Of a stretch of 64,000 nucleotides of DNA, positions 5,709 to 50,534 are shown piece after piece (the first letter of the stretch is position 1; each line of letters starts with the position of its first letter). The notes beneath the pieces are model-generated. The model made no database searches, had not been told where the DNA came from, and saw nothing but the letters and a program-made list of their open reading frames with translations. The translations under genes were made by a program, and so were the position numbers. This DNA comes from an uncultured Ectothiorhodospiraceae bacterium (GTDB taxonomy: Bacteria > Pseudomonadota > Gammaproteobacteria > UBA9214): positions 35,565 to 99,564 of the forward strand of contig CAMYMI010000007.1 of the NCBI GenBank assembly GCA_947259415.1. The letters run 5' to 3'.

Positions 5709-7001
5709 TTGGACGACATCCCGCTCAACATACTTCTGGTCGCGCTGTTTTTTCTCATCCTGCTCTCCGCCTTCTTCTCCGGCTCCGAAACCGGTCTGAT
5801 GACGCTGAATCGTTACCGGCTTCGCAATCTGGCAGAAAGCGGTCACCCCAATGCCCGCCGAGCCGAGCGTTTACTGAAACGACCGGACCGGTTGATCGGA
5901 CTGATCCTGCTCGGCAACAATTTTGTCAACATCCTGGCCTCCATGCTTGCCACGATCATTGCCCTGCGCCTTCTGGGGGAGGCCGGGATCGCGATTGCGG
6001 CCGGACTGCTGACACTGGTTGTGCTGATATTCGCCGAGGTGGCACCGAAAACACTGGGCGCATTGCATCCGGAGCGCATCGCCTTTCCGGCGGCCTTTGT
6101 CTATACACCGCTACTCAAAGTACTTTATCCGCTGGTGTGGCTGGTCAATCTCCTGGCCAACACCCTGCTGAAACGGCTGGGGGTATCGACAGAAGAAGGC
6201 GGGTCCACCGCCCTCTCACACGAGGAGCTGCGCACCGTGGTCATCGAAGCGGGTGCTATGATCCCGGCACGTCACCAGGAAATGCTGCTCAACCTGATGG
6301 ATCTCGAACAAGTGACCGTCGAAGACATCATGGTGCCGCGCAACGAGATTACCGGTGTCGACATCGACGACGACTGGGAGGCGATCACCAAGCAGCTTGC
6401 CGCCAGTCAGTACACACGGCTGCCACTGTACCGCGACAATATCGACCAGGTCATAGGCATCCTGCACATGCGTGATGTGCTGCCACTATTGAACCTCAAG
6501 GAACTCGACCGGGTTGCCTTGCGGCGCATCGTACGCGAACCCTACTTCATCCCGGAGGCGACCACGCTGAATCACCAGCTGCTTAATTTTCAGCGAGAAA
6601 AACGCCGTATCGGCTTCGCCGTCAATGAATACGGCGATATCCAGGGCCTGGTGACACTCGAGGACATCCTGGAAGAGATTGTCGGCGAGTTTACCTCGGA
6701 CCCTGCCGCACATTTCGAAAACATCATTACGCAGCCGGACGGTACCTGGCTGGTTGATGGTTCGGTCAATATCCGTACCCTGAATTCGGTACTGCGAATG
6801 CAGCTCCCCACCGACGGGCCGAAGACCCTGAATGGCCTGATCACCGAATACCTGGAGATGATCCCGGAAACCGATACCAGCCTGTTACTCGACCAGCACC
6901 CGGTCGATATCATCCAGATCAGGGAGAATATGGTGAAGACGGCTCGCATCCATCCGGCGCTCCCTGAAACCGGCGAACAGGAACCGGCAGACCAATCATG
7001 A
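5709..7001 (+). CDS. CNNM/CorC-HlyC family transporter (CorB/YfjD-like): DUF21 + CBS pair + CorC_HlyC
   Basis: N-terminal 4-TM DUF21, tandem CBS, C-terminal transporter-associated domain; TTG start at 5709; follows ypjD as in E. coli. Confidence 0.85.
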   Translation: MDDIPLNILLVALFFLILLSAFFSGSETGLMTLNRYRLRNLAESGHPNARRAERLLKRPDRLIGLILLGNNFVNILASMLATIIALRLLGEAGIAIAAGLLTLVVLIFAEVAPKTLGALHPERIAFPAAFVYTPLLKVLYPLVWLVNLLANTLLKRLGVSTEEGGSTALSHEELRTVVIEAGAMIPARHQEMLLNLMDLEQVTVEDIMVPRNEITGVDIDDDWEAITKQLAASQYTRLPLYRDNIDQVIGILHMRDVLPLLNLKELDRVALRRIVREPYFIPEATTLNHQLLNFQREKRRIGFAVNEYGDIQGLVTLEDILEEIVGEFTSDPAAHFENIITQPDGTWLVDGSVNIRTLNSVLRMQLPTDGPKTLNGLITEYLEMIPETDTSLLLDQHPVDIIQIRENMVKTARIHPALPETGEQEPADQS

Positions 7002-7267
7002 AACTCTTGTTCAATCTTGATGTCATCGAAGGTAACCGGATAAAGGCACGTCCCAGTGACTATCTACGCTCGCTACCACATGAGCGGCAACTCGAGGAAG
7101 TCACGGAATTCCTGCGCTGGGCCGAGAACGAGGCCAGGACGAACCAGGATCCCAAGACCCGTGCAGAGGCCGAGATCGGCGTAGTCACCGCGCGGGAATT
7201 CCTGGAGAAACTGGGACAGGCGGAATCCGTCATCTACACGGGTGACAATGACAGGAGCCGATCATGA
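6998..7267 (+). CDS. hypothetical protein (89 aa), translationally coupled on both sides
   Basis: ATGA overlap with the corB-like stop (6998-7001) and with the msrB start (7264-7267); no recognisable motif. Confidence 0.45.
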
Positions 7268-7665
7268 CCGACAAGATCGATAAAACCGACGCCGAATGGC
7301 GCAGGCAATTAACGCAGGAACAATACGAGGTCACGCGCTGCAAGGGCACGGAACGCGCCTTCACGGGTATTTACCATGACTGCAGGGACAGCGGCATCTA
7401 CCGCTGTGTCTGCTGTGGTGCCGAGCTGTTCAAATCGGATGACAAGTTTGATTCCGGTACCGGCTGGCCGAGTTTCACGCGGGCGGCGGACGCACAGAAT
7501 ATTCATACCGAGACCGACACCAGCCATGGCATGGTGCGCACCGAGGTCACTTGCCGGCACTGTGGCGCCCACCTGGGACATGTCTTCGAGGACGGGCCGG
7601 CCCCGACCGGCCAGCGCTACTGCATCAATTCCCTGTCGCTGAACCTGGTGAAAGACGAAGGCTGA
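7264..7665 (+). CDS. msrB: peptide-methionine (R)-S-oxide reductase MsrB
   Basis: Two CxxC pairs (CVCCGAELF and [16 protein letters not shown]), the SelR signature. Confidence 0.9.
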
Positions 7666-7814
7666 GCCGCAGCCCGCGCCAGCGGCTGGCTGACCAGCTG
7701 CCTGGCCTGATAACGACACGCCAAATGCCAAAAATGTGGCGTATGCACGTTGCCCTGACCATATAAATCCTATACTTGTCCCAATGATCCGCTTTCCTTG
7801 AGCGAGGAATCGGC

Positions 7815-8777
7815 ATGGCGAAACTCATATTGTCCTATCAAGGTCAGCCGAGAAAAAACTACTTCCTTGGCAACGAGGAAGTAGTTGTCGGCCGTGACCA
7901 GCGCTGTAGCGTGCATATCAACGATCCCGGGATGCTGCCGGAGCATGCCAGAATTACCCTGGACAACGGCGTCTACACGATCAGCGCGGAGGGAGTCGAC
8001 CGGGAATTACTGGTCAACCATGGGCACGTGCGCCAGCATGCCCTCAGGGACGGCGACATCATCCACTGCGGTGACTACACCCTGACATACGCCGAGGACC
8101 ACGGCCTGGCGGGAAGCCTGCTGAAGGCGATCCCCCCCGCCACCGGCTGGCTGCAGATACTAACGGGCCCCAACGAGGGCCGTGTGATCATCCTGAACAG
8201 ACCGGCACTGCGTCTTGGCAAGGCCGGTGTCATGACCGCAATCATAACCCGTCAGGACGACGGCTATTACCTGACTCACCTCGATGGCAGCAAACACCCG
8301 CAGATCAATGAGACGACAGTCGCTGACAGGGCATATCCCCTGAATCACGGTGACCACATCCACTTCGGCGAGATCGAGCTCAAGGTCCTGCTGGGCTACG
8401 CCACGGCCGATGAGGTCGACACTCAGCCACCCCCGCAGAGACGTCACACCCGTATCTCCCTGGATACCCCTGCCTCACTCACCCTGGGGGGGCTGCACTG
8501 GGACACCCGCGTGATCGACCTCTCGCTCGGCGGTGCACTGATCACGCGCCCGGTCGACTGGTCGAACAGTACCTGGGAACGCTACCGCCTGCGCTTCGAG
8601 GTGGAGGATCACGCCCCGCTGAATATCGAGACCGTCATCCGGCACGTTAGCGAAAAACACCTTGGGCTGGCCTTCAGCAACATGGATGACCGCACCCGGG
8701 GTGTGCTGCACTGGCTGATCGAGACGAACCTGGGGGATCCGGCGCTGTTTGAATACGAACTGTCAGTCCAGAGATGA
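7815..8777 (+). CDS. tandem FHA-domain protein with C-terminal PilZ (c-di-GMP-binding) domain
   Basis: FHA-1: GRDQRCSVHINDPGMLPEHARI...NGV; FHA-2: LGKAGVMTAIITRQDDGYYLTHLDGS; PilZ motifs RRHTR (RxxxR) and DLSLGG (DxSxGG) about 20 aa apart. Confidence 0.7.
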   Translation: MAKLILSYQGQPRKNYFLGNEEVVVGRDQRCSVHINDPGMLPEHARITLDNGVYTISAEGVDRELLVNHGHVRQHALRDGDIIHCGDYTLTYAEDHGLAGSLLKAIPPATGWLQILTGPNEGRVIILNRPALRLGKAGVMTAIITRQDDGYYLTHLDGSKHPQINETTVADRAYPLNHGDHIHFGEIELKVLLGYATADEVDTQPPPQRRHTRISLDTPASLTLGGLHWDTRVIDLSLGGALITRPVDWSNSTWERYRLRFEVEDHAPLNIETVIRHVSEKHLGLAFSNMDDRTRGVLHWLIETNLGDPALFEYELSVQR

Positions 8778-10133
8778 CAGCTGTTCGAGCACGTCACTGA
8801 GCCGCGTCACCGCCCTGATCTCCAGCCCCTCGACGGCACCTTTGGGCTTGTTTGCCACCGGAATGATGGCGCGGTGAAAGCCGTGCTTGACCGCCTCGCT
8901 GAGCCGGTCCTGACCATTAGGCACCGGGCGCAGCTCGCCCGACAGTCCCACCTCACCGAACACGATCAGGTCAGCGGGCAGGGGCCGGTTCCTGAAACTG
9001 GAGATGACCGCCAGTAGCACCGCCAGGTCGGCCGCGGTCTCCGTGACACGGACACCGCCGACCACATTGACGAACACATCCTGGTCGCCCATGACAAGAC
9101 CGCCATGGCGGTGCAGTACGGCCAGCAGCATGGACAGGCGGTTCTGTTCGAGGCCCAGGGTCACCCGCCGGGGGTTGCCCAGCTGGCTCTGATCCACCAG
9201 GGCCTGCACCTCGACCAGCAACGGCCGGGTACCCTCCCAGGTGACCATCACCACGCTGCCGGGCACACCGGTCTCATGACGTGACAAAAAGATGGCCGAG
9301 GGATTGCGCACTTCCTTGAGGCCTGTCTCTGTCATGGCAAACACGCCCAACTCGTTGACGGCACCGAAGCGGTTCTTGATGGCGCGCAGCATGCGGTAAC
9401 GGTCACCGGCATCGCCCTCGAAATACAGCACCGTGTCGACCATGTGCTCCAGTACCCGCGGACCAGCCAGCGTCCCTTCCTTGGTGACATGACCGACCAG
9501 GAACATCGCGGTACCGGACTGTTTGGCAAAACTCACCAGCTGGGCGGCACTCTCCCTGACCTGGGCCACCGAACCCGGCGCCGATTGCAGGGTCTCTGTG
9601 TACAGTGTCTGGATGGAGTCCAGCACCATCACCCGGGGCCTTTCTTTGCGCGCCGTCTCGATGATGCGCTCCACCGAGGTCTCCGACATCAGGCGCACAT
9701 CACCCCCGTCGAGCCCGATCCGTTCCGCCCGCAGCGAGATCTGTTCCGGTGATTCCTCGCCCGTTACATACAACGAGGCCATGCCGCAGGAGAGGGCCGC
9801 GAGGACCTGCAGCAGCAGGGTCGACTTGCCGATCCCCGGATCACCCCCGATCAGCACCACGGAGCCGGTGACCAGGCCACCCCCGAGGACCCGGTCAAGC
9901 TCCTGCAGGCCGACACTGGTACGCAGGTGAGAATCCGGCTGAACGGCTGAAAGCGGGATCACCGTCGCCGCGCTGTCTCCGGCATAGCCGGCGAAACGTC
10001 CGGAACGGGTGGGCGCCACCGCGACCGCCTCGACCAGCGTGTTCCAGGCACCGCAGTCGGTACAGCGGCCGGACCACTGGGGTGACCGGGCTCCGCAGTC
10101 GCTGCAGGTATAGACTGTCTTGGCTTTAGCCAT
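8763..10133 (-). CDS. radA: DNA repair protein RadA (Sms)
   Basis: N-terminal C4 zinc ribbon (CSDCG...CTDCGAWN), RecA-like GDPGIGKST P-loop, Lon-like C-terminal domain. Confidence 0.95.
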   Translation of the reverse strand: MAKAKTVYTCSDCGARSPQWSGRCTDCGAWNTLVEAVAVAPTRSGRFAGYAGDSAATVIPLSAVQPDSHLRTSVGLQELDRVLGGGLVTGSVVLIGGDPGIGKSTLLLQVLAALSCGMASLYVTGEESPEQISLRAERIGLDGGDVRLMSETSVERIIETARKERPRVMVLDSIQTLYTETLQSAPGSVAQVRESAAQLVSFAKQSGTAMFLVGHVTKEGTLAGPRVLEHMVDTVLYFEGDAGDRYRMLRAIKNRFGAVNELGVFAMTETGLKEVRNPSAIFLSRHETGVPGSVVMVTWEGTRPLLVEVQALVDQSQLGNPRRVTLGLEQNRLSMLLAVLHRHGGLVMGDQDVFVNVVGGVRVTETAADLAVLLAVISSFRNRPLPADLIVFGEVGLSGELRPVPNGQDRLSEAVKHGFHRAIIPVANKPKGAVEGLEIRAVTRLSDVLEQLSSLD

Positions 10134-26753: not shown

Positions 26754-28184
26754 ATGGACACCGCACAACTGACCCGCACCTCGGATTACGAGTGGCGTAT
26801 CGAACCGCAGGGTGCCATGCAGGTACCGGGGATCATATTTGCCAGCGAGGACCTGGTGAGGGCCATGGACGACAAGGTTCGCGAACAGGTCTGCAACGTG
26901 GCCACCCTGCCCGGCATCGTCAAGGCCTCCTACGCCATGCCGGATGCCCACTGGGGCTATGGCTTTCCCATCGGCGGGGTGGCTGCCTTTGATGCCGACC
27001 AGGGCGGAGTCGTTTCCGCCGGGGGTGTCGGTTTCGATATTTCCTGCGGCGTACGCACCCTGCACACCGGCCTGAAACGGCCTGATATCGACGCGGTCAG
27101 GGAACGTCTGGCTGACGCCCTGTTCCATACCATCCCGGCGGGTGTCGGCAGCACCGGGCGCATCCACCTGGACGAGGCCGGCATGGACGCCATGCTGAAC
27201 GGCGGTGCCCGCTGGGCGGTAAAGCGCGGCTGGGGTTACCGCGAAGACCTGGAGCGTGTCGAGGAACACGGCTGCATGGATGGCGCCCGGGCGGAGAACG
27301 TCTCCGAGCGCGCCCGCAAACGCCAGCGTAACGAAATGGGCACCCTGGGTTCCGGCAACCACTACCTCGAGTTGCAGGAGGTCTGCGAGGTCTTTGATCC
27401 CGAGGCGGCCAGCGTCTTCGGTATCAGCCCGGGCGATGTCGTAGTCAGCATCCATTGCGGCTCGCGCGGACTGGGCCATCAGATCGGGACGGAGTTCCTG
27501 AAATCGATGGTGATCAAGGCACAGCAGTACGGCATCACCCTGCCGGACCGCGAACTCGCCTGTGCCCCGATTGACTCGGATACCGGTCAGGCCTATCTCG
27601 GCGCCATGCGCGCGGCCATCAACTGTGCCCTTGCCAACCGCCAGATAATCACCCACCTCACCCGCGAGGTATTCGAGCGGATCATCCCGGCGGCCACGCT
27701 GGAACTGCTCTACGACGTGTCACATAACACCTGCAAGGTGGAGGAGCATGTCATAGACGGCAACCCGCAACGCCTGTATGTCCATCGCAAGGGTGCGACG
27801 CGCGCCTTCGGACCCGGTCACCCCGATATCCCGGAGGACCTGCGCTCCATAGGCCAGCCAGTGCTGATCGGGGGCTCCATGGGGACCGCCTCGCACATCC
27901 TGGCCGGCACCCGACAGGGCGAGGCCCTGTCGTATTCATCGGCCTGTCATGGCGCCGGTCGTGCCATGAGCCGGCGCCGGGCCTACAAGCTCTGGAAGGG
28001 TCGCCAGCTGGTCGACAGCCTGCAGGAGCAAGGCATTCTGATTCGCAGTCCGTCCTCGCGCGGCGTGGCCGAGGAGGCACCGGGAGCCTACAAGGACGTC
28101 GACGCGGTGGTCGATGCCGCCGACGCGGCGGGCCTGGCGCGCAAGGTGGCGAAGCTGAAGCCACTGGCCTGCATCAAGGGCTAG
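26754..28184 (+). CDS. rtcB: RNA-splicing ligase RtcB (3'-phosphate/5'-OH RNA ligase)
   Basis: 476 aa, metal-binding His/Cys (MPDAHWGYGFPIGG, SSACHGAGR), archaeal/eukaryote-like RtcB type. Confidence 0.95.
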   Translation: MDTAQLTRTSDYEWRIEPQGAMQVPGIIFASEDLVRAMDDKVREQVCNVATLPGIVKASYAMPDAHWGYGFPIGGVAAFDADQGGVVSAGGVGFDISCGVRTLHTGLKRPDIDAVRERLADALFHTIPAGVGSTGRIHLDEAGMDAMLNGGARWAVKRGWGYREDLERVEEHGCMDGARAENVSERARKRQRNEMGTLGSGNHYLELQEVCEVFDPEAASVFGISPGDVVVSIHCGSRGLGHQIGTEFLKSMVIKAQQYGITLPDRELACAPIDSDTGQAYLGAMRAAINCALANRQIITHLTREVFERIIPAATLELLYDVSHNTCKVEEHVIDGNPQRLYVHRKGATRAFGPGHPDIPEDLRSIGQPVLIGGSMGTASHILAGTRQGEALSYSSACHGAGRAMSRRRAYKLWKGRQLVDSLQEQGILIRSPSSRGVAEEAPGAYKDVDAVVDAADAAGLARKVAKLKPLACIKG

Positions 28185-28188
28185 GCCG

Positions 28189-28989
28189 ATGCCAGCACAG
28201 CGCGGGCAGCTGTATATCGGGACTTCCGGCTGGTCCTATGACCACTGGAAAGGCCGCTACTACCCCAACGACCTGGCCAGCAGCGGGTGGTTGGGCTATT
28301 ACGCCCGGGAGTTCAACAGCGTCGAGATCAACAGCTCCTTCTATCGTCTGCCCACTGCTTCCACGTTGCAGCACTGGCAGGACGCCACGCCCGCCGACTT
28401 TGTATTTACCGCCAAGGCGAGCCGATACATCACACACATGAAGAAACTGAAAGGGTCGCGGCAAACCCTGCCCCCCTTCCTCGAACGAATCAGTCTTCTC
28501 GGCGACAGGCTGGGCCCCATCCTGTTTCAGCTGCCGCCACACTGGCGCTTCAATGCTGAACGCCTCGCCGCTCTGCTTGATGACCTAGGCGGCGCCTGCC
28601 GTTGCGCCTTCGAATTCCGTGACCACAGCTGGTTCAATGAACAGTGTTATGAACTCCTGTCACGGCACGGCGCCGCGCTGTGTCTCTATGAACTGGAGGG
28701 CTTTCTCAGCCCGCAGGAAATGACTGCCGATTTCGTCTATGTGCGTCTGCATGGGCCTGGGGCGGCCTACCAGGGCAGTTATGGCGACAAGGCACTGGTC
28801 GCTTGGGCGGAGGCCTGCACCCGCTGGACGACCAGTGGGCGCGAGGTTTACATTTATTTTGACAACGACGAATACGCGTATGCGGTACAAAATGCCGCAA
28901 GCCTGCAGGCCATGATTCAGGAGCCCTGCCATGCCGGTTCACAATGCCGAGATCGCCGAACTGTTCAATCGACTCGCCGACCTGCTTGA
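28189..28989 (+). CDS. DUF72 (YecE/UPF0759) family protein
   Basis: YIGTSGWSYDHWKGRYYP N-terminus diagnostic of DUF72; starts 4 nt after rtcB; 3' end overlaps polX by 59 nt. Confidence 0.8.
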   Translation: MPAQRGQLYIGTSGWSYDHWKGRYYPNDLASSGWLGYYAREFNSVEINSSFYRLPTASTLQHWQDATPADFVFTAKASRYITHMKKLKGSRQTLPPFLERISLLGDRLGPILFQLPPHWRFNAERLAALLDDLGGACRCAFEFRDHSWFNEQCYELLSRHGAALCLYELEGFLSPQEMTADFVYVRLHGPGAAYQGSYGDKALVAWAEACTRWTTSGREVYIYFDNDEYAYAVQNAASLQAMIQEPCHAGSQCRDRRTVQSTRRPA

Positions 28990-30652
28990 GCTTGAGGACG
29001 CCAATCCCTTCCGGGTACGCGCCTACCGAACGGCGGCGCGCAATATCAACGGCCTGTCGCACAGCCTGGTTGACCTGCTGGCTGCTGGCGAGGACCTGTC
29101 GAAACTGTCGGGCATCGGCAAGGACCTGGCGGGGAAGATCCGTACCATCATCGAGACCGGCAAGCTGCCACTGCTGGAACAGGTGCAGGCACGCACCCCC
29201 GCCGAGCTCAGCGACCTGATGAAGATCGACGGACTCGGCCCAAAACGGGTGAAGACACTGCACCAGCAGCTGCATATCAGCAGCTTCGAAGACCTGCAGC
29301 GAGCGGCGCGTAGCGGCAAGATCCGCGCACTGGCGGGCTTCGGCGCAAAGACCGAGGCACTCATCCTGGAACGCCTGACACGTTCCCGGCAAGCAGATAT
29401 CCGCTCCCGCCTGGCAGATGCGGAGGATATCGCCGGCCCGCTGGTCAATTATCTGCTGGACTGCACCGGGGTCAAACAGGTCAATATCGCCGGCAGCTAC
29501 CGGCGCCGCCGCGAGACCGTCGGCGACCTGGATATCCTGGTGACAGCGAAACAGGGCACCCCGGTAACCGACCACTTTGTCGCCTATGACGAGGTGAGCG
29601 AGGTGATTTCACACGGCAAGACCCGGTCCACCGTGCACCTGCGTTCCGGCATGCAGGTCGACCTGCGCGTAGTTGCCCAGGTGAGTTATGGTGCCGCCCT
29701 TCTGTATTTCACCGGATCCAAGGCACACAACATCGCCTTGCGCAAGCTGGCCATCAGGCAGGGATACAAGCTCAACGAGTACGGCCTGTTCAGGGGCGAC
29801 AAGCGCGTTGCAGGACGCACGGAGGCGGCCGTGTATGCAAAACTGGGCCTGTCCTATATCGAGCCTGAACTGCGCGAGCAGCAAGGCGAGATAGAGGCAG
29901 CCCGCAAGGGCACTTTGCCTGAACTTGTCAGCCGCGAGGACATCCGTGGTGACCTGCACTGCCATACCCGGGCCACCGATGGCCACGACAGCCTGGAGGC
30001 CATGGTGGCTGCCGCCCGCAAGCTGGGTTATGAATACCTCGCCATCACGGACCATTCAAAACGGGTCAGCGTCGCCCACGGGCTCGATCACAAGCGCCTG
30101 CTGGAGGAGGCCCGGCGAATCAACAAACTCAACGAACAGCTGGATGATATCGTGGTACTCAAGTCCATCGAGGTCGACATCCTCGAGGACGGCAGCCTGG
30201 ACCTGCCCGACAGCGTACTCGGCCAGCTGGACCTGGTGGTCGGTGCGATCCACTACAAGTTTAATCTCACGCGCAAACAGCAGACCGAGCGCATCATCCG
30301 CGCCATGGACAACCCGCACTTCAATATCCTGGCACACCCCAGTGGACGGCTGCTCAACCAGCGCCCGCCCTACGATATCGATATGGAAAAGATCATGCAG
30401 GCCGCTGTGGAGCGCGGCTGCTTCCTGGAACTGAACGCCCAGCCCGCGCGCCTAGACCTCACCGATGGCGACTGCATGCTGGCCCGCGAGTTGCGACTCA
30501 AGGTGGTGATTTCAACCGATGCACACAGTACCGGCACCCTCGACTATATGCGTTTCGGAATAAGCCAGGCACGGCGCGGCTGGCTGGAACCTGACGACGT
30601 GGTCAACACGTGCGGACTGGATGAATTGAGAAAATTACTCAAACGCAACTGA
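28931..30652 (+). CDS. polX: DNA polymerase X family protein with C-terminal PHP phosphoesterase domain
   Basis: Pol-beta-like N-terminus ([17 protein letters not shown], Hh[18 protein letters not shown] catalytic Asp) plus PHP motifs (HCHT, DH, HP). Confidence 0.9.
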
Positions 30653-33749: not shown

Positions 33750-34847
33750 TCAAGTTCTTATATAGAATCTCTCATCCAAAGCCTTAAGTGTTTCCACAAT
33801 CCCTGTGTACTCGAGTTCGTCCATGGGCAGCATGGCCGCACCGAAGAAGCCCTGGCGCCGCATGCCGATGGCCTTGTTCGCGACGGTGTCACGTACCTTG
33901 TCCCAGAAGGGGTGGGCGAACACGTCCACCGCCTCGGTGAAGCGGCCGTCGTGCATGGCAAACGCGGCACAACTCACCACCGGTGGGCCATCGAAATAAC
34001 TGATTCCCGAATTCAGCTGCACCGGCATCAGCGGCATCTGGTGGGAACCGCGCATGGCACCGGCCACGTAGGGCCCGATGGCATAGGGCGCGATGATCTC
34101 GCCGGTCGCCGGAAAGGTCTTCTGCACCCGCACCAGCAGGACCGGATCATCCTTGCCGGTGTACTTGCCGGCAATGTTGTGCAGGCGTGACGTGGACAGC
34201 GAAACCGCCTGTTCGCCGCTGGTCCGTGACCAGACCGATTCGATCACATAGCGCTCCGGATTACGCAGCAGCGCGGCAATGTCGTAGAGATCCTCGGGCG
34301 CATTCAGTTCGATTATACGGTCGCCTTCGGTGTGACTGACATCCATGATCACAAAGCGGAAGCCTTCTTTCATGGACGGCGACAGCATCAGCCCCGGGGT
34401 ATTCATGGGGTCGGCAAAGGCCAGGTACAGAGCCAGGTTGTAACAGCCGGGATCGGTCTTGTCGGCGGCAAAAAACAGGAAGGGTTCATTGGGGCGCTCG
34501 TCGAAGTCCATCTCCGCAACGGCCGGTCCCATACCGCGCACGTTTCCGGAAAAGGCCTCCTTGAGCAGGTCCTGGCCAGCGCCGTAGAGGCCCTGCTCCC
34601 TGGCGGTTTCCGTACCCGCCATGAAGGCATCCCAGGCCAGGGCGTGGATATCCTCATCGGTCACACCACGGGTATGGCTCATGACAATGGCAATGTCGTC
34701 GCCGGTATAGCTGATATAACTGTCGAGCAACAGATCGGCGCTGCGCTCCTGCACCATGTGACGCACGGTTTCCAGGAGGCGGCGTGATGGACAGATATGG
34801 CCGCCGATCGAGCCGATATCCGCTTTAATGACACTGAGTGTGATCTG
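33750..34847 (-). CDS. fbp: bifunctional fructose-1,6-bisphosphate aldolase/phosphatase (class V FBPase)
   Basis: MQITLSVIKADIGSIGGH N-terminus is the hallmark of the archaeal-type FBP aldolase/phosphatase; about 365 aa. Confidence 0.85.
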   Translation of the reverse strand, partial: QITLSVIKADIGSIGGHICPSRRLLETVRHMVQERSADLLLDSYISYTGDDIAIVMSHTRGVTDEDIHALAWDAFMAGTETAREQGLYGAGQDLLKEAFSGNVRGMGPAVAEMDFDERPNEPFLFFAADKTDPGCYNLALYLAFADPMNTPGLMLSPSMKEGFRFVIMDVSHTEGDRIIELNAPEDLYDIAALLRNPERYVIESVWSRTSGEQAVSLSTSRLHNIAGKYTGKDDPVLLVRVQKTFPATGEIIAPYAIGPYVAGAMRGSHQMPLMPVQLNSGISYFDGPPVVSCAAFAMHDGRFTEAVDVFAHPFWDKVRDTVANKAIGMRRQGFFGAAMLPMDELEYTGIVETLKALDERFYIRT

Positions 34848-34970
34848 CATCGGAGTCCCTCCTGCAATAACCGGTATATCAGGCAGCAACAGCTATTTTA
34901 AAGGTAGCAGATTACCAGTGATCCGGGACTGACGTGTGTCAAGGAGAACGCGATCTGCGCTGTGTTTATC

Positions 34971-36224: not shown

Positions 36225-36434
36225 GCCTGTAACTTACACCTCTTGCTGCCGTTATGCCCCTGGGCAAACCCGCAAGCGTCCACAACCACTGCTTGCACCT
36301 GACCGGTTATCACTGATAATTGACGCAAATCAGTCCGGCGACGGATTATGTGGTCCATAATTAATATATAAATCGTAAACCGGTAATTGTCATTAAACGG
36401 ACGTATCCCGGCCACCAGCAGACGAGGCAAACTC

Positions 36435-38870
36435 ATGGAACCAGGCAAGCCGCTGACCCCTGACATGCTCTACCAGGAATGTGACCCGGAACTGTTTGAC
36501 TTTAAAACCACTGACGAACTTGAGGACCTGGTCGATATCCCGGGCCAGGACCGTGCCGTCGAGGCCATCCATTTCGGCACCGAGATGGCGCCCGACGGCT
36601 ATAACCTGTACGTGCTCGGCACCCCGGGCAGCGGCCGGCACAGTCTCGTCAGACACATCCTCGAGCAAAAGAGCGCACAAATACCGGCCGCCGATGACTG
36701 GTGTTACGTGAACAATTTTTCCGACCCGACGAAGCCTTGCGCGCTGCATATGCCTGCAGGCCAGGGTACCGAGCTGCGCAGTGACGTCGCACAGCTGATC
36801 GGCGAGGCCTACACGGGCATACCCGCAGCCTTTGAAAGCGAGGATTACCAGACCCGCCAGCAGGCCATCGAGGAGGAATTCAAGGAATCCCAGGAAAAGA
36901 CCTTCGAGGATGTACAACAGTTCGCCAGGAAACGCGGCATCAAGATCATCCAGACCGCGACCGGCTTCGTATTCGCACCACTGCACAAGGACAAGGCCAT
37001 CAGCCCGCAGGAATACGAAAAGCTGCCACAGACGGAAAAGGAGCACCTGGAACAGGTCACCGAGGAAGTCGGCAAGGAACTACAGCGCGCCATGCAGGCA
37101 ATACCACAGGAGGCGCGCAAGGTGCGCGCCAAGATGCGGGAACTTGACCGCGAGGTCTCGATGTATGCCGTCGGCGGGCTGTTTGACCAGTTGCTGGACA
37201 AGTACCGCACTCAGGAGCAGGTCGTCACCTATCTCAGGGAGATGCAATCCGATATCGTCGACAACGTCGATGTCTTTTTAAAGGCTCCGGAACATGACAG
37301 GCTCCCGGCCAAGGTTCTGCTCGGCGGTCGTGCCCAGGGACTGGAGTCCACTGAATCACCGGCCATGCGCCGCTATGCCGTCAACGTCATAATCGACCAT
37401 GGCGGTGACGAGGGTGCCCCGCTTGTCTTCGAGGATTACCCGACCTTTCCCAACCTGGTCGGCAAGATCGAGCACGTTTCCGAAATGGGCACCCTGATCA
37501 CCAACTTCACCCTGATCAGGGCCGGAGCCCTGCACAGCGCCAATGGCGGATACCTGGTGCTGGATGCCGCAAAGCTGCTGGTACAGCCGTTCGCCTGGGA
37601 GGGCCTGAAGCGCGCCCTGAAATCGTCCCGGATCCGCATCCGTTCGCTCGGCGAGGTTCTCAGCCTGATCAGCACGGTGTCGCTCGAACCGGAACCGATA
37701 CCGCTCAACCTCAAGGTCATTCTGCTGGGCGACCGCCTGATTTACTACCTGCTGCAGGCCTATGACCCCGAGTTCATGGATCTTTTCAAGGTGGCGGCGG
37801 ACTTTGATGACGCAATTGACCGTACCGCGGAGAACAGCCGACAGTTCGCCCGGCTGCTGGCCACCCATATCAAGCGCGAGCAACTCAGGCCACTGGATTG
37901 CTCCGGCACCGCCCGGGTGCTGGAGGAATGCGCACGCCATGCCGGTGATGCGGAAAAGATCTCCGCACAGATCCGCCACGCGGCCGACATCGTTCGCGAG
38001 GCGGATTTCCATGCCCGTAACAACGACAGCAAGATTATCGGCAGCGAAGAGGTCCAGCGTGCGATTGATGCCCGTATCCGCCGCGACAGCCGTATTCGCG
38101 ACCGCCTGCAGGAGGAGATTCTGCGCGGCACCATCCTGATCGACACCGACGGCGAACGCGTAGGCCAGGTCAACGGTCTGGCTGTGGCCCAGCTCGGCGA
38201 GTCCTCCTTTGCCCATCCCTGCCGTATCACCGCGCGCGTCGCCCTGGGATCGGGCGAAGTCGTGGATATCGAACGCGAGGTGGAACTCGGCGGGCCAATC
38301 CATTCCAAGGGCGTATTGATTTTATCGGGGTTCCTGGCATCCCGCTATGTGATAGATCAACCCCTGTCACTGTTCGCGAGCCTGGTGTTCGAGCAAACCT
38401 ACGGCGGGATCGAGGGTGACAGTGCCTCTGCGGCCGAACTCTGTGCCCTGCTCTCGGCACTCGCGCAGATTCCGGTACGGCAGGGCCTGGCGATTACCGG
38501 CTCGGTCAACCAGCATGGCCAGGTCCAGGCCATCGGCGGTGTCAACGAGAAAATCGAGGGGTTCTTCGACATCTGCTCAAGACGCGAGCTGACAGGAACG
38601 CAGGGTGTGCTGATCCCGTCTTCCAACGTCAAGCACCTGATGTTACGCAGGGACGTGATCGAGGCGGTTGCGGCCAAGCATTTCCAGATCTACCCGGTTG
38701 AGACCATCGACCAGTGCATGGAACTCCTGACCGGGATTGAAGCGGGCGAGTGCAATGCCCGGGGTGATTTTCCCACTGATTCGGCCAACCAGCGGATACG
38801 CACCCGGCTGATCGAATTTGCCGAAAAGCGGCATGCCTTCGGCGCGACCGGTTCCAAATCAGAGACCTAG
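36435..38870 (+). CDS. LonC-like Lon-related protease with degenerate AAA+ module
   Basis: Walker A reads GTPGSGRHS (no Lys); C-terminal Lon S16 protease domain with Ser (GDSAS) and Lys (NEKIEGF) dyad; start at MEPGKPLTPD. Confidence 0.8.
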   Translation: MEPGKPLTPDMLYQECDPELFDFKTTDELEDLVDIPGQDRAVEAIHFGTEMAPDGYNLYVLGTPGSGRHSLVRHILEQKSAQIPAADDWCYVNNFSDPTKPCALHMPAGQGTELRSDVAQLIGEAYTGIPAAFESEDYQTRQQAIEEEFKESQEKTFEDVQQFARKRGIKIIQTATGFVFAPLHKDKAISPQEYEKLPQTEKEHLEQVTEEVGKELQRAMQAIPQEARKVRAKMRELDREVSMYAVGGLFDQLLDKYRTQEQVVTYLREMQSDIVDNVDVFLKAPEHDRLPAKVLLGGRAQGLESTESPAMRRYAVNVIIDHGGDEGAPLVFEDYPTFPNLVGKIEHVSEMGTLITNFTLIRAGALHSANGGYLVLDAAKLLVQPFAWEGLKRALKSSRIRIRSLGEVLSLISTVSLEPEPIPLNLKVILLGDRLIYYLLQAYDPEFMDLFKVAADFDDAIDRTAENSRQFARLLATHIKREQLRPLDCSGTARVLEECARHAGDAEKISAQIRHAADIVREADFHARNNDSKIIGSEEVQRAIDARIRRDSRIRDRLQEEILRGTILIDTDGERVGQVNGLAVAQLGESSFAHPCRITARVALGSGEVVDIEREVELGGPIHSKGVLILSGFLASRYVIDQPLSLFASLVFEQTYGGIEGDSASAAELCALLSALAQIPVRQGLAITGSVNQHGQVQAIGGVNEKIEGFFDICSRRELTGTQGVLIPSSNVKHLMLRRDVIEAVAAKHFQIYPVETIDQCMELLTGIEAGECNARGDFPTDSANQRIRTRLIEFAEKRHAFGATGSKSET

Positions 38871-39667
38871 TGATGACGCAGCGCGCCAAACACCCACCTG
38901 CACGGATTGCGGTCATGCTGGTCAACCTCGAGTCTGATCACGCCACCCTGGAAATGCTGAACCTGCTCGCCGGTGAATCACCGGCCGAGATCCACGGCCT
39001 GTTCGTGGAGGATATCGAACTGCTGTCACTGGCTGACCTGCCGCTGGCACGTGAATATTGTCGCCTGACTCATGTGGAACGCGTTGTGCAGGTCCCGGAA
39101 CTCGAACGCCAGTTCAGAATCCAGGCCCGTGCCGCTGAACAGGCACTGACCGCACTCGCCAGCCGTCGCGGCATGCAGTGTTCTTTCAGGACAGTACGCG
39201 GCGAGCCTGCCACCCTGCTGCGGGAAACGCTGGAGGCAATGGATTTGATGTTACTCAGCGCCACTCGCCATACCCTGTCGACAGCCGACTATCGTGCATT
39301 TGCGACCCGTGGCCGTCCCGTCAAAAGGCCGGTGACCGTGGTGTTCGATGGCTCTGAAGTCGCCCAACGCGCCCTCGGGGTTGCCACGCAACTGGCCCGT
39401 GCCGGAGCGGCTGCCTTGACGGTATTGCTGGTGGACGATACATCGGCTGCATTTGATGCACTGCGTTCACAGGCGACTGAACAAATCGGCACACAGCCGG
39501 CCGAGTTCAGGGAAGTCGTAAAACCGGAGATGAGCGAACTCATCAGGCAGGTGCAATCAAGCCGTGCCGGCTGCCTGGTAATCGGGCGGAACGAGGACCT
39601 GCTCACACCGAACAATATCGAACGCCTGCGCCACCAGCCCGGCTGCCCGGTCGTGCTGGTCAGCTAG
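38870..39667 (+). CDS. tandem universal stress protein (UspA) domain protein
   Basis: Two Usp-like alpha/beta modules; ATGA overlap with the lonC-like stop. Confidence 0.65.
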   Translation: MMTQRAKHPPARIAVMLVNLESDHATLEMLNLLAGESPAEIHGLFVEDIELLSLADLPLAREYCRLTHVERVVQVPELERQFRIQARAAEQALTALASRRGMQCSFRTVRGEPATLLRETLEAMDLMLLSATRHTLSTADYRAFATRGRPVKRPVTVVFDGSEVAQRALGVATQLARAGAAALTVLLVDDTSAAFDALRSQATEQIGTQPAEFREVVKPEMSELIRQVQSSRAGCLVIGRNEDLLTPNNIERLRHQPGCPVVLVS

Positions 39668-41449: not shown

Positions 41450-42337
41450 TCAGTCCTCCGGATATGCGACGGCATCCTGAAAGAACGGCAGGTACTCGGT
41501 CCAGTCGTTGACCGGACCGGCATGGAAAAACAGCACAATGCCGTTACGGTCGAGCACGTAGCTTGACGGGAAAATCCTGGCCAGCTCCCGGTCCGGCATC
41601 TTTTCGCCGGCAGCGGTCACCAGGAAGGCATCATCCTCCCCGCTGGCGCCGGAATCTGCCAGGGGCAACCCGGCGAATCCCTGTCGCTGCGCCCACTCAC
41701 GTGCATTGCTGATCGGTTCGCGCAGCTGCAACAGGACCAGGGCGACATCATCACCGGTCTTGTCCAGCAGGATACGGTGCAGGGTGTCCAGGGTGGGCAA
41801 TTCTCGCAGGCATGGTGGGCACCAGCTGCCCCAGAAATGCACCATCACGACCTTGCCGCGCAGGTCGGCAATTGACCGGGACCGTCCGTCCGCACTGGTG
41901 AAGGCGATGTTCGGGAATCGATCACCGACTTGCGTGCCCGTCGCGGCTGTCGCGGCCTGTTCAGCTGTCTTATAGGGCCCCCAGAGCTTGCCCCATGCCT
42001 CGCGCGCGAACTCCAGCGTGTCATCCACGGCATAAGGAATACAGCGCAGGGCCGTGTGCTTCTGGCATTCCTCCACAGCGACCTGGCGGGCCTCCTCGGC
42101 AGTGGCCCTCCCGGATGACCAGGCCCAGGCCCCGCCCGGTGCGATCGCGAATGCGCGGTGCCTGTCGGCCGACAGAAAGACCTGCTGATAGGTCGCACGC
42201 GCGCGTTCACCGACATGCGGGATGGCGTCCGCGTCATCAATTCCGGCAGCGCTGACGGTGTTACCCGGAATGAAAAACAGGCACGGCAGCAGGATAAAAA
42301 AGAGAGCCCGGATTAACGGACTCTCAGGTTTCGCCAT
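41450..42337 (-). CDS. TlpA/ResA-family thiol:disulfide oxidoreductase
   Basis: Thioredoxin-fold WCPPC motif, N-terminal signal/anchor; start at MAKPESP. Confidence 0.8.
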   Translation of the reverse strand: MAKPESPLIRALFFILLPCLFFIPGNTVSAAGIDDADAIPHVGERARATYQQVFLSADRHRAFAIAPGGAWAWSSGRATAEEARQVAVEECQKHTALRCIPYAVDDTLEFAREAWGKLWGPYKTAEQAATAATGTQVGDRFPNIAFTSADGRSRSIADLRGKVVMVHFWGSWCPPCLRELPTLDTLHRILLDKTGDDVALVLLQLREPISNAREWAQRQGFAGLPLADSGASGEDDAFLVTAAGEKMPDRELARIFPSSYVLDRNGIVLFFHAGPVNDWTEYLPFFQDAVAYPED

Positions 42338-42388
42338 GATTGCTTGCCTTGTACCAGGCATTGCTGTTGTTATTCGGTTTATCCCGTG

Positions 42389-42982
42389 CTAATCGATCTC
42401 TTCCCAGCCGGTGATCATCGCCTTGATGTGCGACATCGGCTTGTGGCCGGTAGTGGCAAGATAGATGTGCGCAATGAAGAAGATCAGCATCATGAAGGCG
42501 CCGATGACGTGCGCGGTGGCCACCCACTCCAGGTTCAACCAGCCCAGGCCCCAGCTTTCCCATGACGTATAGAACAGGTACAGCAGCCCGGTGGCCCAGA
42601 TCAACGGGTTGATCATCAGTTTTACAAACAGGTAGGCCAGGCGCTGCAGAGGATTATGCTTGTGCAGCGTGGTCTGACGAAACGGATGCGGCGCATGGCT
42701 GAAGATACCCGTGAGGTAGTAACGCATCATCGCCTCCACCTTGTCCATGGTGGGCACGTACTGCTTCCATTCACCGGTGGTGAAATGCCAGAAGATGGCG
42801 AACACCCACAGGGTGATCAGCGCCCAGGCGGACAGGGTATGCAATTCCACGGCGCGTTCAAAACCCAGGTTGCTGTAGGTACCGTGGATTTCAAAACCCG
42901 TGATCATCATCACGATGATCAGCAGGGCCTGGGTCCAGTGCCAAAAGCGTTCGAAGCGTTTAAAGATGTATATTTTCTCCAT
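42389..42982 (-). CDS. membrane di-haem cytochrome b (FdnI/HyaC-like b-type subunit)
   Basis: 4 TM helices with conserved His pairs (WHWTQ, HTLSAW, HVIGAF, AHIYL); 4 nt downstream of the octaheme gene stop. Confidence 0.75.
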   Translation of the reverse strand: MEKIYIFKRFERFWHWTQALLIIVMMITGFEIHGTYSNLGFERAVELHTLSAWALITLWVFAIFWHFTTGEWKQYVPTMDKVEAMMRYYLTGIFSHAPHPFRQTTLHKHNPLQRLAYLFVKLMINPLIWATGLLYLFYTSWESWGLGWLNLEWVATAHVIGAFMMLIFFIAHIYLATTGHKPMSHIKAMITGWEEID

Positions 42983-42986
42983 TGTC

Positions 42987-44747
42987 TTAATCCTCTCTCT
43001 TGGCAAGGATGACACGGATACCACCGTGGATCAGGACACCAATCAGTGCCAGCAAGGCCACTCCAAAGCCAATCATGTCGAGGAGCGGCATCCTGTCACG
43101 CGCCGGCAGGTAGATGCCATCAATACCGGCCAGGCGGCCACCATCGGTATGACAGCTTTCACACGCCAGTGCATCCTCCTTCGGTGACACCATGTGGGTA
43201 ATCGGCCAGCTCATCTCGGTGGACACGAAGCCGAGCTCCCCGCTGTATTCGGAACCGGCGGTCCGCATACCCACTTCCATGGCCTTGTCCCAGTCGTAGT
43301 TACCCCAGAAGGCGGCATCATCTTTACCTGCGGTGTGCAGGACGGCCAGGGTCTGCAGGCCCTTGTCGTACATCTGTTTGCCACGGAACACGCGCACCGG
43401 CCAGATGCGGGCCTCCGGATCATCCGCGTCACCCTGGAACTCGTTGATCTTGACAACGCTGTCTTCACTGACCTTGTCACCGAACAGGGTGTAATTCACC
43501 TTGCCGTTGAACCACTGGTACTCGGGTACCACGTAACGGTCATAGGTGAAGTTGCCCTTCTTGCTGTCGTAGACGACCTTGCCCGCGCTGTTCTTGAGCT
43601 GGATACGGTGACCCTGCTCATCGAGCTTGCCGGCCGTGGACCAGTCCCAGCTCATCTTGGTCTGCAGCGTGCTGCGTGCATACGCCGGGATGTGGCAGGT
43701 CTGGCAGGCCAGCTTGCGGGTGTGGTCATTGAGCTTTGCCGCCTTGTCGGGATGCGGCGTATTGCCGTGACAGGCCACGCAGGTGGTGGGATTGCGCGGG
43801 TCCTGGCTGCCGGGTACCAGCACGCCCTTTTCGTCCGCCGCGGTCGGACCGTAGCGGCTGCCCGACACCTCGTGTTCATCGGTCACATGACATGTCGAGC
43901 AGGTGAAGTTCAGCCCCTTGCTGTCCATGTGCACATCAAGATAGCGCCCCGGATTCGTCAGCGAGCTGTCGAGGTCGCCGTGCTTGACGGCATCACCGCC
44001 ACCGCCATAGAAATGACAGGTACCGCAGGTCTTGCGGCTGGTCGGTCCGACATTCTGGGCGACCTGCTTCAGGTCGGTGGGCGGCCGGAACTTGCCTGAA
44101 TGCGGCGGCCACTCGATGGTTTCATAGTTGGGATGACCCGACAGCCCCGGAAGCTTCTTGTAGGTCCCGGTGGTGTCGTGGCAGACCAGACAGTCGACAT
44201 TGGCCTCGGCAGTGAAATCGAAGCTGTCATCTGCCCACCCGTAACCGATATGACAGGCCGAACAGAAGGTGTTATTTGACTTGACCGAGGTACAGAAGTT
44301 GTTGATGACGTGCTTCTTGCCCAGTTTCTGACCGGTATCCGGATTGATGTATTCCCAGCTCCAGTGCTTGGTCTTGTGGATCTGCTTGGCGGCTTCGGTG
44401 TGACATTTAAGACAGGCCTTGGTCACTTGCGGTCCTGACTTGAAGTCGATATCGAGTTCCTCGAACTTGGAGTGATCCGCGGTGGACTTGCTTTTCTCTT
44501 CCACCGGTTCCTCGACCGCGACCTGCTTCGGTGCCGGGACACTCTGTATACTTTCGGCTGCGGCCTTTTCGTCCTCACCGGCGACCTTGACCACAGCGCC
44601 TTCAATGGCCTGTTCTATTTCTGCAACCGCACCCTTCTCTGCTTCGGCCAGGGGTGTCGCCGTAGCAATGACCGGACTGGATACTGCCAGGGCCAGTGCG
44701 AATGCAATTCCCAGCACCGGAGCAATCACTCGATCTATGGTAAACAT
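42987..44747 (-). CDS. octaheme c-type cytochrome (OTR/HAO-superfamily-like) with C-terminal TM anchor
   Basis: Eight CxxCH motifs (CLKCH, CSACH, CLVCH, CGTCH, CSTCH, CVACH, CQTCH, CESCH), signal peptide from MFTIDRV, C-terminal hydrophobic helix. Confidence 0.85.
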   Translation of the reverse strand: MFTIDRVIAPVLGIAFALALAVSSPVIATATPLAEAEKGAVAEIEQAIEGAVVKVAGEDEKAAAESIQSVPAPKQVAVEEPVEEKSKSTADHSKFEELDIDFKSGPQVTKACLKCHTEAAKQIHKTKHWSWEYINPDTGQKLGKKHVINNFCTSVKSNNTFCSACHIGYGWADDSFDFTAEANVDCLVCHDTTGTYKKLPGLSGHPNYETIEWPPHSGKFRPPTDLKQVAQNVGPTSRKTCGTCHFYGGGGDAVKHGDLDSSLTNPGRYLDVHMDSKGLNFTCSTCHVTDEHEVSGSRYGPTAADEKGVLVPGSQDPRNPTTCVACHGNTPHPDKAAKLNDHTRKLACQTCHIPAYARSTLQTKMSWDWSTAGKLDEQGHRIQLKNSAGKVVYDSKKGNFTYDRYVVPEYQWFNGKVNYTLFGDKVSEDSVVKINEFQGDADDPEARIWPVRVFRGKQMYDKGLQTLAVLHTAGKDDAAFWGNYDWDKAMEVGMRTAGSEYSGELGFVSTEMSWPITHMVSPKEDALACESCHTDGGRLAGIDGIYLPARDRMPLLDMIGFGVALLALIGVLIHGGIRVILAKRED

Positions 44748-44871
44748 GGCCTCTCTCCGCTGGAATGGATGAGCTAATGCTAAAAAATCGTTTACTACTA
44801 TACAAACAACCGACCGCTGGGCAGCGGCCACTAACGGCCGCTGCATCAGCAGGGTCAGATAAGCAGACCCC

Positions 44872-50024: not shown

Positions 50025-50534
50025 ATGATCATCGAAGACTGGATACTCGCGACCCTCATTATCATGTTCATCCTGGCATGCGGCTGGCTCTACGTGATCT
50101 GGCAGAATACCCAGCGATCGGAGCGCCAGATCCGCCAGGTCGTCTCGCAGCAGACCCTGATCGGCACCGATATCAGTGCCCGCTCGCTTTGCCATGCCGT
50201 GCATTACCTGCACCCCAGCATGCACGCGGGTGTCGACTTTGTGATCAAGCACGATGACCCCGGTAAGCCGCCCTATATTGCCGAATGGAATTCGACCCAG
50301 GAAAAACCTACAGCCGAGCAACTCAGGGCGGCGCTCACCAAGATCTCGGAACATGGCCTGCTGGAGAATTACGCCATACGTCGCCAGGCTGAATATCCCA
50401 GCATCGGTGACCAGCTCGACGCAGCCTTCAAGGCCCGTCATGGCGACAAGACCGAGCAGATGGAACAGGACAGGAGGATCCAGGAGATCAAGGACAGATA
50501 TCCGAAGACCTCCGGCGAATGCGGCGAGATGTAA
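50025..50534 (+). CDS. hypothetical protein with N-terminal TM anchor
   Basis: ORF only; no recognised motif. Confidence 0.4.
   Translation: MIIEDWILATLIIMFILACGWLYVIWQNTQRSERQIRQVVSQQTLIGTDISARSLCHAVHYLHPSMHAGVDFVIKHDDPGKPPYIAEWNSTQEKPTAEQLRAALTKISEHGLLENYAIRRQAEYPSIGDQLDAAFKARHGDKTEQMEQDRRIQEIKDRYPKTSGECGEM

Follow-up and report, generated by a model that had tools for sequence, protein, structure and literature searches.

A MapZ-type PilZ domain joined to a tandem-FHA module at a conserved radA-convergent locus in Gammaproteobacteria

Domains of the FHA-FHA-PilZ protein

The stretch of DNA analysed here, referred to below as the window, spans 64 kb of contig CAMYMI010000007.1 from an uncultured Ectothiorhodospiraceae bacterium and contains a gene whose product is characterized by two forkhead-associated (FHA) domains, a flexible linker and a PilZ domain, in this order (Table 1). 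The product is 100 % identical to a database protein (P0001), and its N-terminal start, MAKL(T/I)LS, is common to its homologs. Over the whole protein Pfam detects FHA at 60.7 bits (cutoff 20.7) and PilZ at 52.1 bits (cutoff 22.5). When the segments are scanned separately, FHA1 (residues 23-86) scores 44.6 bits, PilZ (residues 208-302) 54.9 bits and FHA2 20.4 bits, the last with only the C-terminal two-thirds of the Pfam model matched. Since Pfam alone left the second FHA domain just under the cutoff, independent support was required: a family profile built on 18 relatives aligns, along practically its entire extent, with FHA domains of known structure, those of EmbR (E=1.9e-8) and GarA (E=2e-4), and the AlphaFold2 (AF2) model has the FHA fold in this region. 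A preliminary description of this DNA had proposed two FHA domains with a C-terminal PilZ domain. By domain search this holds outright for FHA1 (PF00498) and PilZ (PF07238); FHA2, on its own a partial match to PF00498, stands by virtue of the family profile and the fold. Both Pfam models are passed by 22 of the 22 full-length relatives tested, so that neither chance nor a gene-calling artefact accounts for the architecture, which is confirmed as real and conserved.

The AF2 model, for which 28 homolog sequences were supplied, consists of two β-sandwiches and a PilZ barrel, all three confidently predicted (mean predicted local distance difference test, pLDDT, of 83), and Foldseek matches the FHA part to FhaA, GarA and OdhI with template-modelling (TM) scores of 0.85-0.89. 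Confidence falls to a pLDDT below 50 at residues 196-210, in and around the linker. The linker differs in sequence and length among the relatives, and in those with separate genes the stop codon, the spacer and the new start all fall at this position. The maximal 19-residue Kyte-Doolittle mean is 1.03; there is no hydrophobic transmembrane segment and the protein is accordingly predicted to be soluble. The gene is separated from the upstream msrB by 149 bp. A promoter and terminator scan found neither a sigma-70 consensus promoter nor a plus-strand intrinsic terminator around it, and no Rfam family was found on either strand between 7000 and 10500. Opposite-strand open reading frames (ORFs) inside the gene (8160-8447, 8475-8711, 8609-8797) were taken to be shadow ORFs, given the high GC content of the gene.

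Table 1. Features of the FHA-FHA-PilZ gene and its immediate neighbours in the window (positions of the whole stretch; residues of the 320-residue product)
Feature	Position	Strand	Basis and remarks
corC/CNNM gene, conserved left border of the slot	5709-7001	+	Pfam, synteny
89-residue ORF, variable	6998-7267	+	no Pfam match; start and stop overlap corC and msrB
msrB, variable	7264-7665	+	Pfam, synteny
Shine-Dalgarno-like GAGGA, 6 nt 5' of the ATG	7804..7808	+	sequence read
Complete gene, 320-residue FHA-FHA-PilZ protein	7815..8777 (including stop codon)	+	ATG start; ORF list
FHA1, residues 1-97, FHA fold with degenerate phosphothreonine pocket	7815..8105	+	Pfam 44.6 bits; AF2 pLDDT 84-95; alignment to Rv1747 FHA-1
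FHA2, residues 106-195, divergent FHA	8130..8399	+	family profile against PDB; AF2 pLDDT 77-91
Flexible acidic/Pro-rich linker, residues 196-208, running straight into RxxxR	8400..8438	+	AF2, relatives
PilZ β-barrel, residues 209-291	8439..8687	+	Pfam 52-55 bits; AF2 pLDDT 82-96; Foldseek
RxxxR motif R209-R-H-T-R213 (MapZ R9...R13), c-di-GMP-binding	8439..8453	+	ungapped PA4608 alignment
[D/N]hSxxG motif D235-L-S-L-G-G240 (MapZ D35-V-S-L-H-G40), c-di-GMP-binding	8517..8534	+	PA4608 alignment
Two C-terminal helices, residues 292-306 and 309-318 (MapZ α1/α2, the CheR1-binding element)	8688..8768	+	AF2, PA4608 alignment
radA, convergent neighbour, 3' end overlapping the gene by 15 bp	8763..10133	-	Pfam; conserved positional marker of MapZ-type PilZ genes

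The PilZ domain has the sequence and fold features of the canonical family (PF07238): the profile score, both ligand-binding motifs and the fold, a six-stranded β-barrel followed by a C-terminal helix. Its signature motifs, previously described as intact, are so: among 44 unique, non-identical fused relatives R209, R213, D235 and G240 are invariant (44/44) and S237 is present in 43. This pattern points to strong purifying selection on the site that binds c-di-GMP (cyclic dimeric GMP), in an otherwise fast-evolving protein, and binding of c-di-GMP by the domain is very likely on the strength of these residues. The only PilZ protein matched among all PDB sequences is PA4608 (MapZ) of Pseudomonas aeruginosa (E=2e-8, residues 204-317). 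This alignment of 114 residues is ungapped, so that our residue numbers are those of MapZ plus 200. The top structures retrieved by Foldseek, 5y4r_D and 5xly_B, are likewise those of c-di-GMP-bound MapZ in its complex with CheR1 (TM score 0.84-0.87, root-mean-square deviation 1.8-2.9 Å); PilZ structures of Alg44 are also matched. By sequence, structure, C-terminal helices and the convergent position relative to radA, an arrangement already reported in the preliminary description, the PilZ module belongs to the MapZ lineage. The stand-alone MapZ-like family is very large, with 6,280 matches at E<=1e-8 among the scored candidates.

The C-terminal helices carry the signature L-x-x-L-[VI]-E-x-N-L-G-D...L-x-E-x-E-L (L-x-x-L-V-E-L-N-L-G-D...L-L-E-R-E-L for the MapZ subfamily, of which the window protein keeps NLGD..L.E.EL), with L298, L301, I302, E303, N305, L306, G307, D308, L311, E315 and L316 aligning with MapZ. 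MapZ itself binds c-di-GMP with a dissociation constant of 6-9 µM and contacts CheR1 via α1/α2, with the α1 contacts being made by L92, I95, S96, H97, R99, R100, L101, E103, L104 and N105, and its R99A mutation abolishes binding (bioRxiv 10.1101/2020.02.11.943704). In the window protein L101, E103 and N105 are retained, and in the N-terminal half of α1, which is remodelled, L92/I95/S96/H97/R99/R100 are replaced by D292/R295/G296/V297/H299/W300; α1 of its subclade reads 'RTRGVLHWLIETNLGD'. Most fused relatives carry the MapZ-identical helix 'SITHLRRLVELNLGD', and a type-A fused relative keeps 'HLRRLVELNLGD'. Arg occupies the MapZ-R99 position in 37 and the R100 position in 31 of the 44 fused proteins, and 15 of 127 stand-alone MapZ-like proteins, too, have His where MapZ has R99. 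The window protein is thus MapZ-like in its helices and its position next to radA, and differs from MapZ, a single-domain protein of ~125 residues, both in the contacts S96, H97, R99 and R100 (G, V, H and W in the window subclade) and in an additional N-terminal tandem-FHA module of ~200 residues. Given that most fused relatives keep 'SITHLRRLVELNLGD', a CheR-type target may reasonably be inferred for the fused family. For the window subclade the combined changes in α1, including R99 to His and R100 to Trp, leave the output partner uncertain, and its target may have shifted. Across the fused family two types of this helix are seen ('HLRRLVE' and 'xxRWLVE/VLHWLIE'), and which of the two is present goes partly together with whether FHA1 has lost Arg27.

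Canonical FHA domains contact phosphothreonine (pThr) via an Arg in the β3-β4 loop ('GR'), a Ser in the β4-β5 loop ('SxxH') and a Thr/Asn in the β6-β7 loop ('S/T-N-G-T'); when the corresponding Arg, Ser or Asn is mutated, Rad53 FHA1, EmbR and GarA no longer bind phosphopeptides. FHA1 aligns residue by residue with Rv1747 FHA-1 and with distant tandem-FHA relatives that read GR...S-x-x-H...S-T-N-G-T. Of the canonical positions the window protein keeps G26, R27 and H44; the Ser position is Leu41, and V61-D62-R63-E64-L65 stands in place of the S-T-N-G-T loop. Among the 39 fused proteins that cover FHA1, the Ser is found in none, a loop Thr or Asn in only five, and Arg27 in 29. Arg27 is not under selection even within the subclade, since the orthologs nearest to the window protein (72-76 % identity) have a Ser there. 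In FHA2 a profile-to-structure alignment reveals a deletion of ~12 residues where EmbR has 'hdndivldsanvSRHH', which removes the strand and the loop with the Ser-x-x-His; G135-K136 takes the place of GR (position 136 being Lys or Arg in 36 of the 43 fused relatives that cover it), and the 'S-N-G' loop with its Asn is absent. The motifs that are conserved in this domain, G111-W-L-Q, G122-R123 and D149-G-Y-Y-L, are specific to the family. Hence, both FHA domains lack the canonical pThr pocket and have kept the fold, and their earlier description as phospho-threonine readers is not borne out. Most of the 114 FHA-only relatives are equally degenerate, and ten keep the full R-S-H-T-N pattern. One distant tandem-FHA relative with a canonical FHA1 pocket (P0177; GR...SxxH...STNGT) is encoded immediately downstream of a PP2C phosphatase gene (locus L041, 6989-8735). 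The simplest reading of this distribution is that the ancestral tandem-FHA protein depended on pThr, and that the pocket was lost on the branch in which the association with a PilZ gene arose.

Fused, split and single states of the locus

A scan of relatives with one genome per GTDB species yielded 16 loci whose relatives span the entire query, in Ectothiorhodospiraceae metagenome-assembled genomes (MAGs), Thiogranum, Thiohalobacter, Sedimenticola and unclassified Gammaproteobacteria. These comprise 13 fused and 3 split loci that share one slot: trmD-ffh / ccsA-like-corC(-msrB) → gene ← radA-alr-dnaB, with only the radA side being visible in L013, where the contig begins at the gene itself. 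Together with further loci, the following four states are distinguished. The fused state: this is found in the window and in 13 loci. The split state: in seven loci (L014, L015, L016, L032, L040, L042 and L044) a tandem-FHA gene of ~200 codons is accompanied by a separate PilZ gene of ~125 codons. These are separated by genuine stop codons and spacers of 4-140 bp and have their own starts. The PilZ-alone state: a MapZ-type gene for 122-128 residues is convergent with radA and has no accompanying FHA gene, as in Pseudomonas (L035-L037) and a Chromatiales MAG (L043). The tandem-FHA-alone state: the FHA gene faces radA by itself in L039, and in L033 too it has no adjacent PilZ gene. Adjacency to radA is seen in L001-L016, L032, L040, L042, L043 and the Pseudomonas loci L035-L037; our literature search on an adjacency of PA4608 and radA gave no result, and it is shown here from the genome contexts.

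As a hidden Markov model scan of the ORFs and inspection of the DNA show, the split pairs L014, L015 and L016 encode tandem-FHA proteins of 225-230 residues and PilZ proteins of 121-139 residues, with a stop codon, a spacer of 30-103 bp and a new ATG between them. L014 and L015 come from two independent isolate assemblies of Sedimenticola hydrogenitrophicus (SN1189 and SB48), and L016 lies on a 3.96-Mb MAG contig. The Sedimenticola pairs share with the window the orthologous locus, the order of modules and 29-33 % identity over both parts; they differ in being two polypeptides with a stop codon and a spacer in between, as opposed to a single chain. By position, the window gene is therefore the ortholog of MapZ, joined with the tandem-FHA neighbour on its upstream side, i.e. 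a Rosetta-stone fusion of adjacent genes. Since the relatives encode both parts as neighbouring genes, the FHA tandem and the PilZ domain probably work together. This extends the preliminary description in three respects: the PilZ part is orthologous to MapZ, the protein unites what are two separate neighbouring genes in relatives, and it represents one state of a conserved locus rather than an isolated oddity.

An exhaustive profile search recovered ~25 full-length cluster representatives at 50 % identity, along with many proteins of ~200 residues that match only positions 1-193 and PilZ proteins of ~120 residues that match 203-319. Their database labels are only generic ('FHA protein', 'PilZ domain-containing protein'). 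In a neighbour-joining tree of the concatenated modules, which has long branches and no support values, the split forms fall in two groups nested among the fused forms. This suggests more than one event of fusion or fission; we do not rely on so crude a tree and claim no number of events.

The surroundings of several relatives are of interest in their own right. In L044 (4361-6252) the split pair, with a 4-bp spacer, is convergent with a gene for a PrmC/HemK-like methyltransferase instead of radA; one study reports that a single-domain PilZ protein of Xanthomonas binds an N5-glutamine methyltransferase (PMC11250160). A tandem-FHA gene lies beside fleQ-fleSR-fliEFGH in L033/L034 (6081-8645), and another near genes for FleQ and a dCache-PAS-GGDEF-EAL protein in L039 (100-8645). 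Split pairs are found near CheX and two further PilZ genes in L032 (4243-6446) and near GGDEF-EAL and CheW genes in L042 (11368-13868). In all these cases the distance is no more than a few kb, and none of these motility and c-di-GMP genes has a counterpart in the window.

Proposed function and alternative explanations

With moderate confidence, we regard the window protein as a cytoplasmic c-di-GMP receptor of the MapZ lineage that is covalently joined to its tandem-FHA neighbour and acts as an adaptor with a phospho-independent FHA module. In such an adaptor the RxxxR, where the flexible linker between FHA2 and PilZ ends, and the DxSxxG loop would bind c-di-GMP. As in MapZ, binding would order the RxxxR segment, and the two C-terminal helices would, together with the ligand, form a surface on which a target protein can dock. 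For its part, the degenerate FHA tandem would serve as a phospho-independent protein-protein interaction module: it would either bring the adaptor to a second partner or location, or change its own position once c-di-GMP clamps the linker. For the FHA tandem this role is the most plausible one by analogy with EssC of the type VII secretion system and the cytoplasmic domains of YscD/MxiG of the type III secretion system: these share the FHA fold devoid of pThr residues, in EssC also as an N-terminal tandem (5fwh is among the Foldseek matches), and differ in that the window protein has no secretion-system context, transmembrane segment, ATPase or ring domains. The pathway under control would most likely be motility or chemotaxis, with a CheR-type methyltransferase as the target, because of the orthology to MapZ, the MapZ-identical helix in most fused relatives, and the occurrence, close to several relatives, of genes for flagella, chemotaxis and c-di-GMP signalling; the links to motility drawn from those neighbourhoods are circumstantial.

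Several observations weigh against this proposal. The AF2 model has a predicted TM score (pTM) of 0.42 and no confident inter-domain packing, and so offers no structural support for an FHA-PilZ contact or a c-di-GMP-driven rearrangement. Six of the ~10 CheR1-contacting positions of α1 are altered in the window subclade, including the essential R99, so that binding of CheR is not to be assumed there. A Pfam survey of ~51 ORFs, i.e. nearly all non-shadow ORFs of at least 150 residues in the 64-kb window, recovered housekeeping and respiratory genes and no cheR, flagellar or GGDEF/EAL (c-di-GMP turnover) genes. Finally, the protein evolves fast, with 29-39 % identity in the more distant loci (L004-L016) against 55-80 % for the syntenic neighbours, which would fit changing partners.

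Among the alternatives, the one that fares best is a YcgR-like intramolecular switch, in which the FHA tandem takes the role of PilZN and c-di-GMP clamps FHA2 on the PilZ barrel, thereby making or masking a composite surface with no independent partner. The RxxxR at the end of a disordered FHA2-PilZ linker resembles the inter-domain linkers of xPilZ-PilZ proteins (bioRxiv 10.1101/814665), and two PilZ proteins with two domains, MotI/DgrA and VCA0042, are among the Foldseek matches too. The latter, however, match at a root-mean-square deviation of 13-17 Å, and the low pTM weighs on this switch as well. Moreover, an obligatory clamp in cis would not need the parts to be separate polypeptides, as they are in seven loci, and in L033 and L039 the tandem-FHA gene occurs with no adjacent PilZ gene at all. 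We consider such a switch unlikely. Since it is a separate polypeptide in those seven loci, the FHA tandem more likely serves the PilZ adaptor as a partner, or as a subunit that recruits partners, and less likely as a lid that acts solely within the molecule; the inter-domain geometry of the AF2 model supports neither option.

A second alternative, which was also the suggestion of the preliminary description, is that the FHA domains read pThr marks set by a Hanks-type Ser/Thr kinase encoded elsewhere, and that the protein integrates kinase signalling with c-di-GMP. Both modules do have a genuine FHA fold, FHA1 of the window protein keeps G26-R27 and H44, and the distant relatives with a full pocket, one of them beside a PP2C gene (L041), imply that the ancestral module was probably linked to pThr. 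Against this stand the loss of the FHA1 Ser in all 39 fused proteins and of the β6-β7 Asn/Thr, the replacement of R27 by Ser in the closest orthologs, and the absence of the whole Ser/His segment from FHA2. The Pfam survey of the window also bears out the earlier statement that it holds no Ser/Thr kinase or PP2C gene; none was seen either in the examined flanks of the fused or split loci (by tblastn with window genes and in Pfam-annotated flanks), the rest of the genome not having been searched for kinases. Coupling to Ser/Thr-kinase signalling is therefore unlikely, to a slightly greater degree than the intramolecular switch.

A functional link to RadA and DNA repair is conceivable in view of the tail-to-tail pairing of MapZ-type PilZ genes with radA, whose convergent adjacency, with gaps of -15 to +122 bp, is kept from Pseudomonas to Ectothiorhodospiraceae and Sedimenticola. 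The FHA domains would then act as in eukaryotic DNA-damage signalling, and the pairing of DisA, which makes use of c-di-AMP, with RadA in Gram-positives provides an analogy. Convergent genes, however, do not share a transcript, CheR1 has already been demonstrated as a target of MapZ, the pair in L044 lies beside the PrmC-like gene and not radA, and the adjacency is most simply a frozen boundary of a synteny block; we hold this link to be very improbable. That the fusion is a decaying accident, such as read-through of two genes, or an artefact of assembly or gene calling, might be suggested by the fast evolution of the protein and by a sister Ectothiorhodospiraceae MAG (L002, 10001-10750; P0005), in which an in-frame deletion of ~71 residues removes most of the PilZ barrel and spares the C-terminal helices, and which is either an allele in decay or a product of faulty assembly, but this view is essentially refuted by the conservation data, given 44 unique fused sequences from independent assemblies with intact frames, invariant ligand residues and conserved structural glycines, as well as a confident AF2 prediction for all three domains.

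Returning to the adaptor with a phospho-independent FHA module, one may tentatively go a step further. It is possible, although we would not put it above a speculative proposal, that the locus encodes an unrecognised, conserved two-part c-di-GMP effector of sulfur-oxidising and related Gammaproteobacteria, consisting of a tandem-FHA protein and a MapZ-type PilZ protein that are encoded next to each other or as a fusion. Here an FHA tandem that formerly depended on pThr would have been repurposed as a phospho-independent partner or target of PilZ, routing c-di-GMP signals beyond or besides CheR, and in the fused form the ligand at the linker would switch the availability of the FHA domains. The literature searched contained no mention of an FHA-PilZ fusion, and the PilZ censuses therein are without FHA.

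No c-di-GMP receptors are more numerous than the single-domain PilZ adaptors, yet very few of these have known partners. As gene fusion is among the strongest predictors of a physical or functional partnership available from sequence, the fusion described here nominates the widespread tandem-FHA protein of ~200 residues as a candidate partner of MapZ-type adaptors, a prediction open to direct testing in Sedimenticola, which is in culture and encodes the two parts as separate proteins. While current models of c-di-GMP signalling are not overturned, the locus cautions against equating 'FHA' with Ser/Thr-kinase signalling in bacterial annotation, in that the fold has been kept and the pocket lost.

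Related systems and neighbouring genes

Two further groups of c-di-GMP signalling proteins bear comparison with the FHA-FHA-PilZ protein. The YcgR, PlzD and MotI proteins (PilZN-PilZ): these are c-di-GMP motility effectors that, like the window protein, possess an N-terminal β-rich module, an RxxxR-bearing linker and a canonical PilZ domain; in the window protein, however, the N-terminal module is an FHA tandem that is not derived from PilZ, and the C-terminal helices are MapZ-like. The Bdellovibrio DgcB (FHA-GGDEF) and cyanobacterial FHA-GGDEF-EAL proteins: these likewise combine FHA with c-di-GMP signalling, and the FHA domain of DgcB is among the structural matches (6hc0/6hc1). They act on the synthesis and degradation side, with DgcB FHA binding a phosphorylated peptide, whereas the window FHA tandem is attached to a receptor domain and is devoid of the pThr pocket.

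Other candidate identities were considered and rejected. A YcgR-type effector finds no match to PF07317 or PF12945 (YcgR/PilZN) even at E<=10. As to a YscD/EscD ring protein of the type III secretion system, PF16697 (Yop-YscD_cpl) scores 55.8 bits (cutoff 33.2), but this match overlaps that of FHA, and there is neither a transmembrane segment nor a type III secretion context. The TagH/type VI secretion FHA protein model (TIGR03354) reaches 46.5 bits against a cutoff of 120.25, over the N-terminal FHA part only, and no type VI secretion genes lie nearby. For an anti-phage defence protein, PADLOC gave no matches at E<=0.01.

Of the variable genes between corC and the FHA-FHA-PilZ gene, the 89-residue ORF is kept only in the three closest MAGs (L001-L003, 84-88 % identity) and is absent from the more distant syntenic loci. 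Elsewhere in the window several genes and clusters deserve mention. RtcB RNA ligase, a DUF72 protein and a PolX-family polymerase with a PHP domain are encoded in a row on the plus strand (26754-30652), possibly as a nucleic-acid repair cluster. An archaeal-type fructose-1,6-bisphosphate aldolase/phosphatase (FBPase_3, E=4.7e-160; 33750-34889, minus strand) is present in this Ectothiorhodospiraceae-like genome and may bear on autotrophic gluconeogenesis. A homolog of LonC/LonB-like AAA proteases of 827 residues is followed by a protein of 265 residues with a weak Usp match (36387-39667, plus strand); a LonC-like gene is likewise found a few kb from the MapZ-radA pair in the Pseudomonas loci L035-L037. 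On the minus strand (41450-44909) lie genes for a redoxin-domain protein, a cytochrome b561-type membrane protein and a multihaem cytochrome c of 640 residues (PF11783, MtrC/MtrF-like domains), then a DUF302 protein. Lastly, an ORF of 169 residues that matches the phage family XkdW (E=4.4e-14; 50025-50534, plus strand) is situated among purA, hisS-like and hflKC genes.

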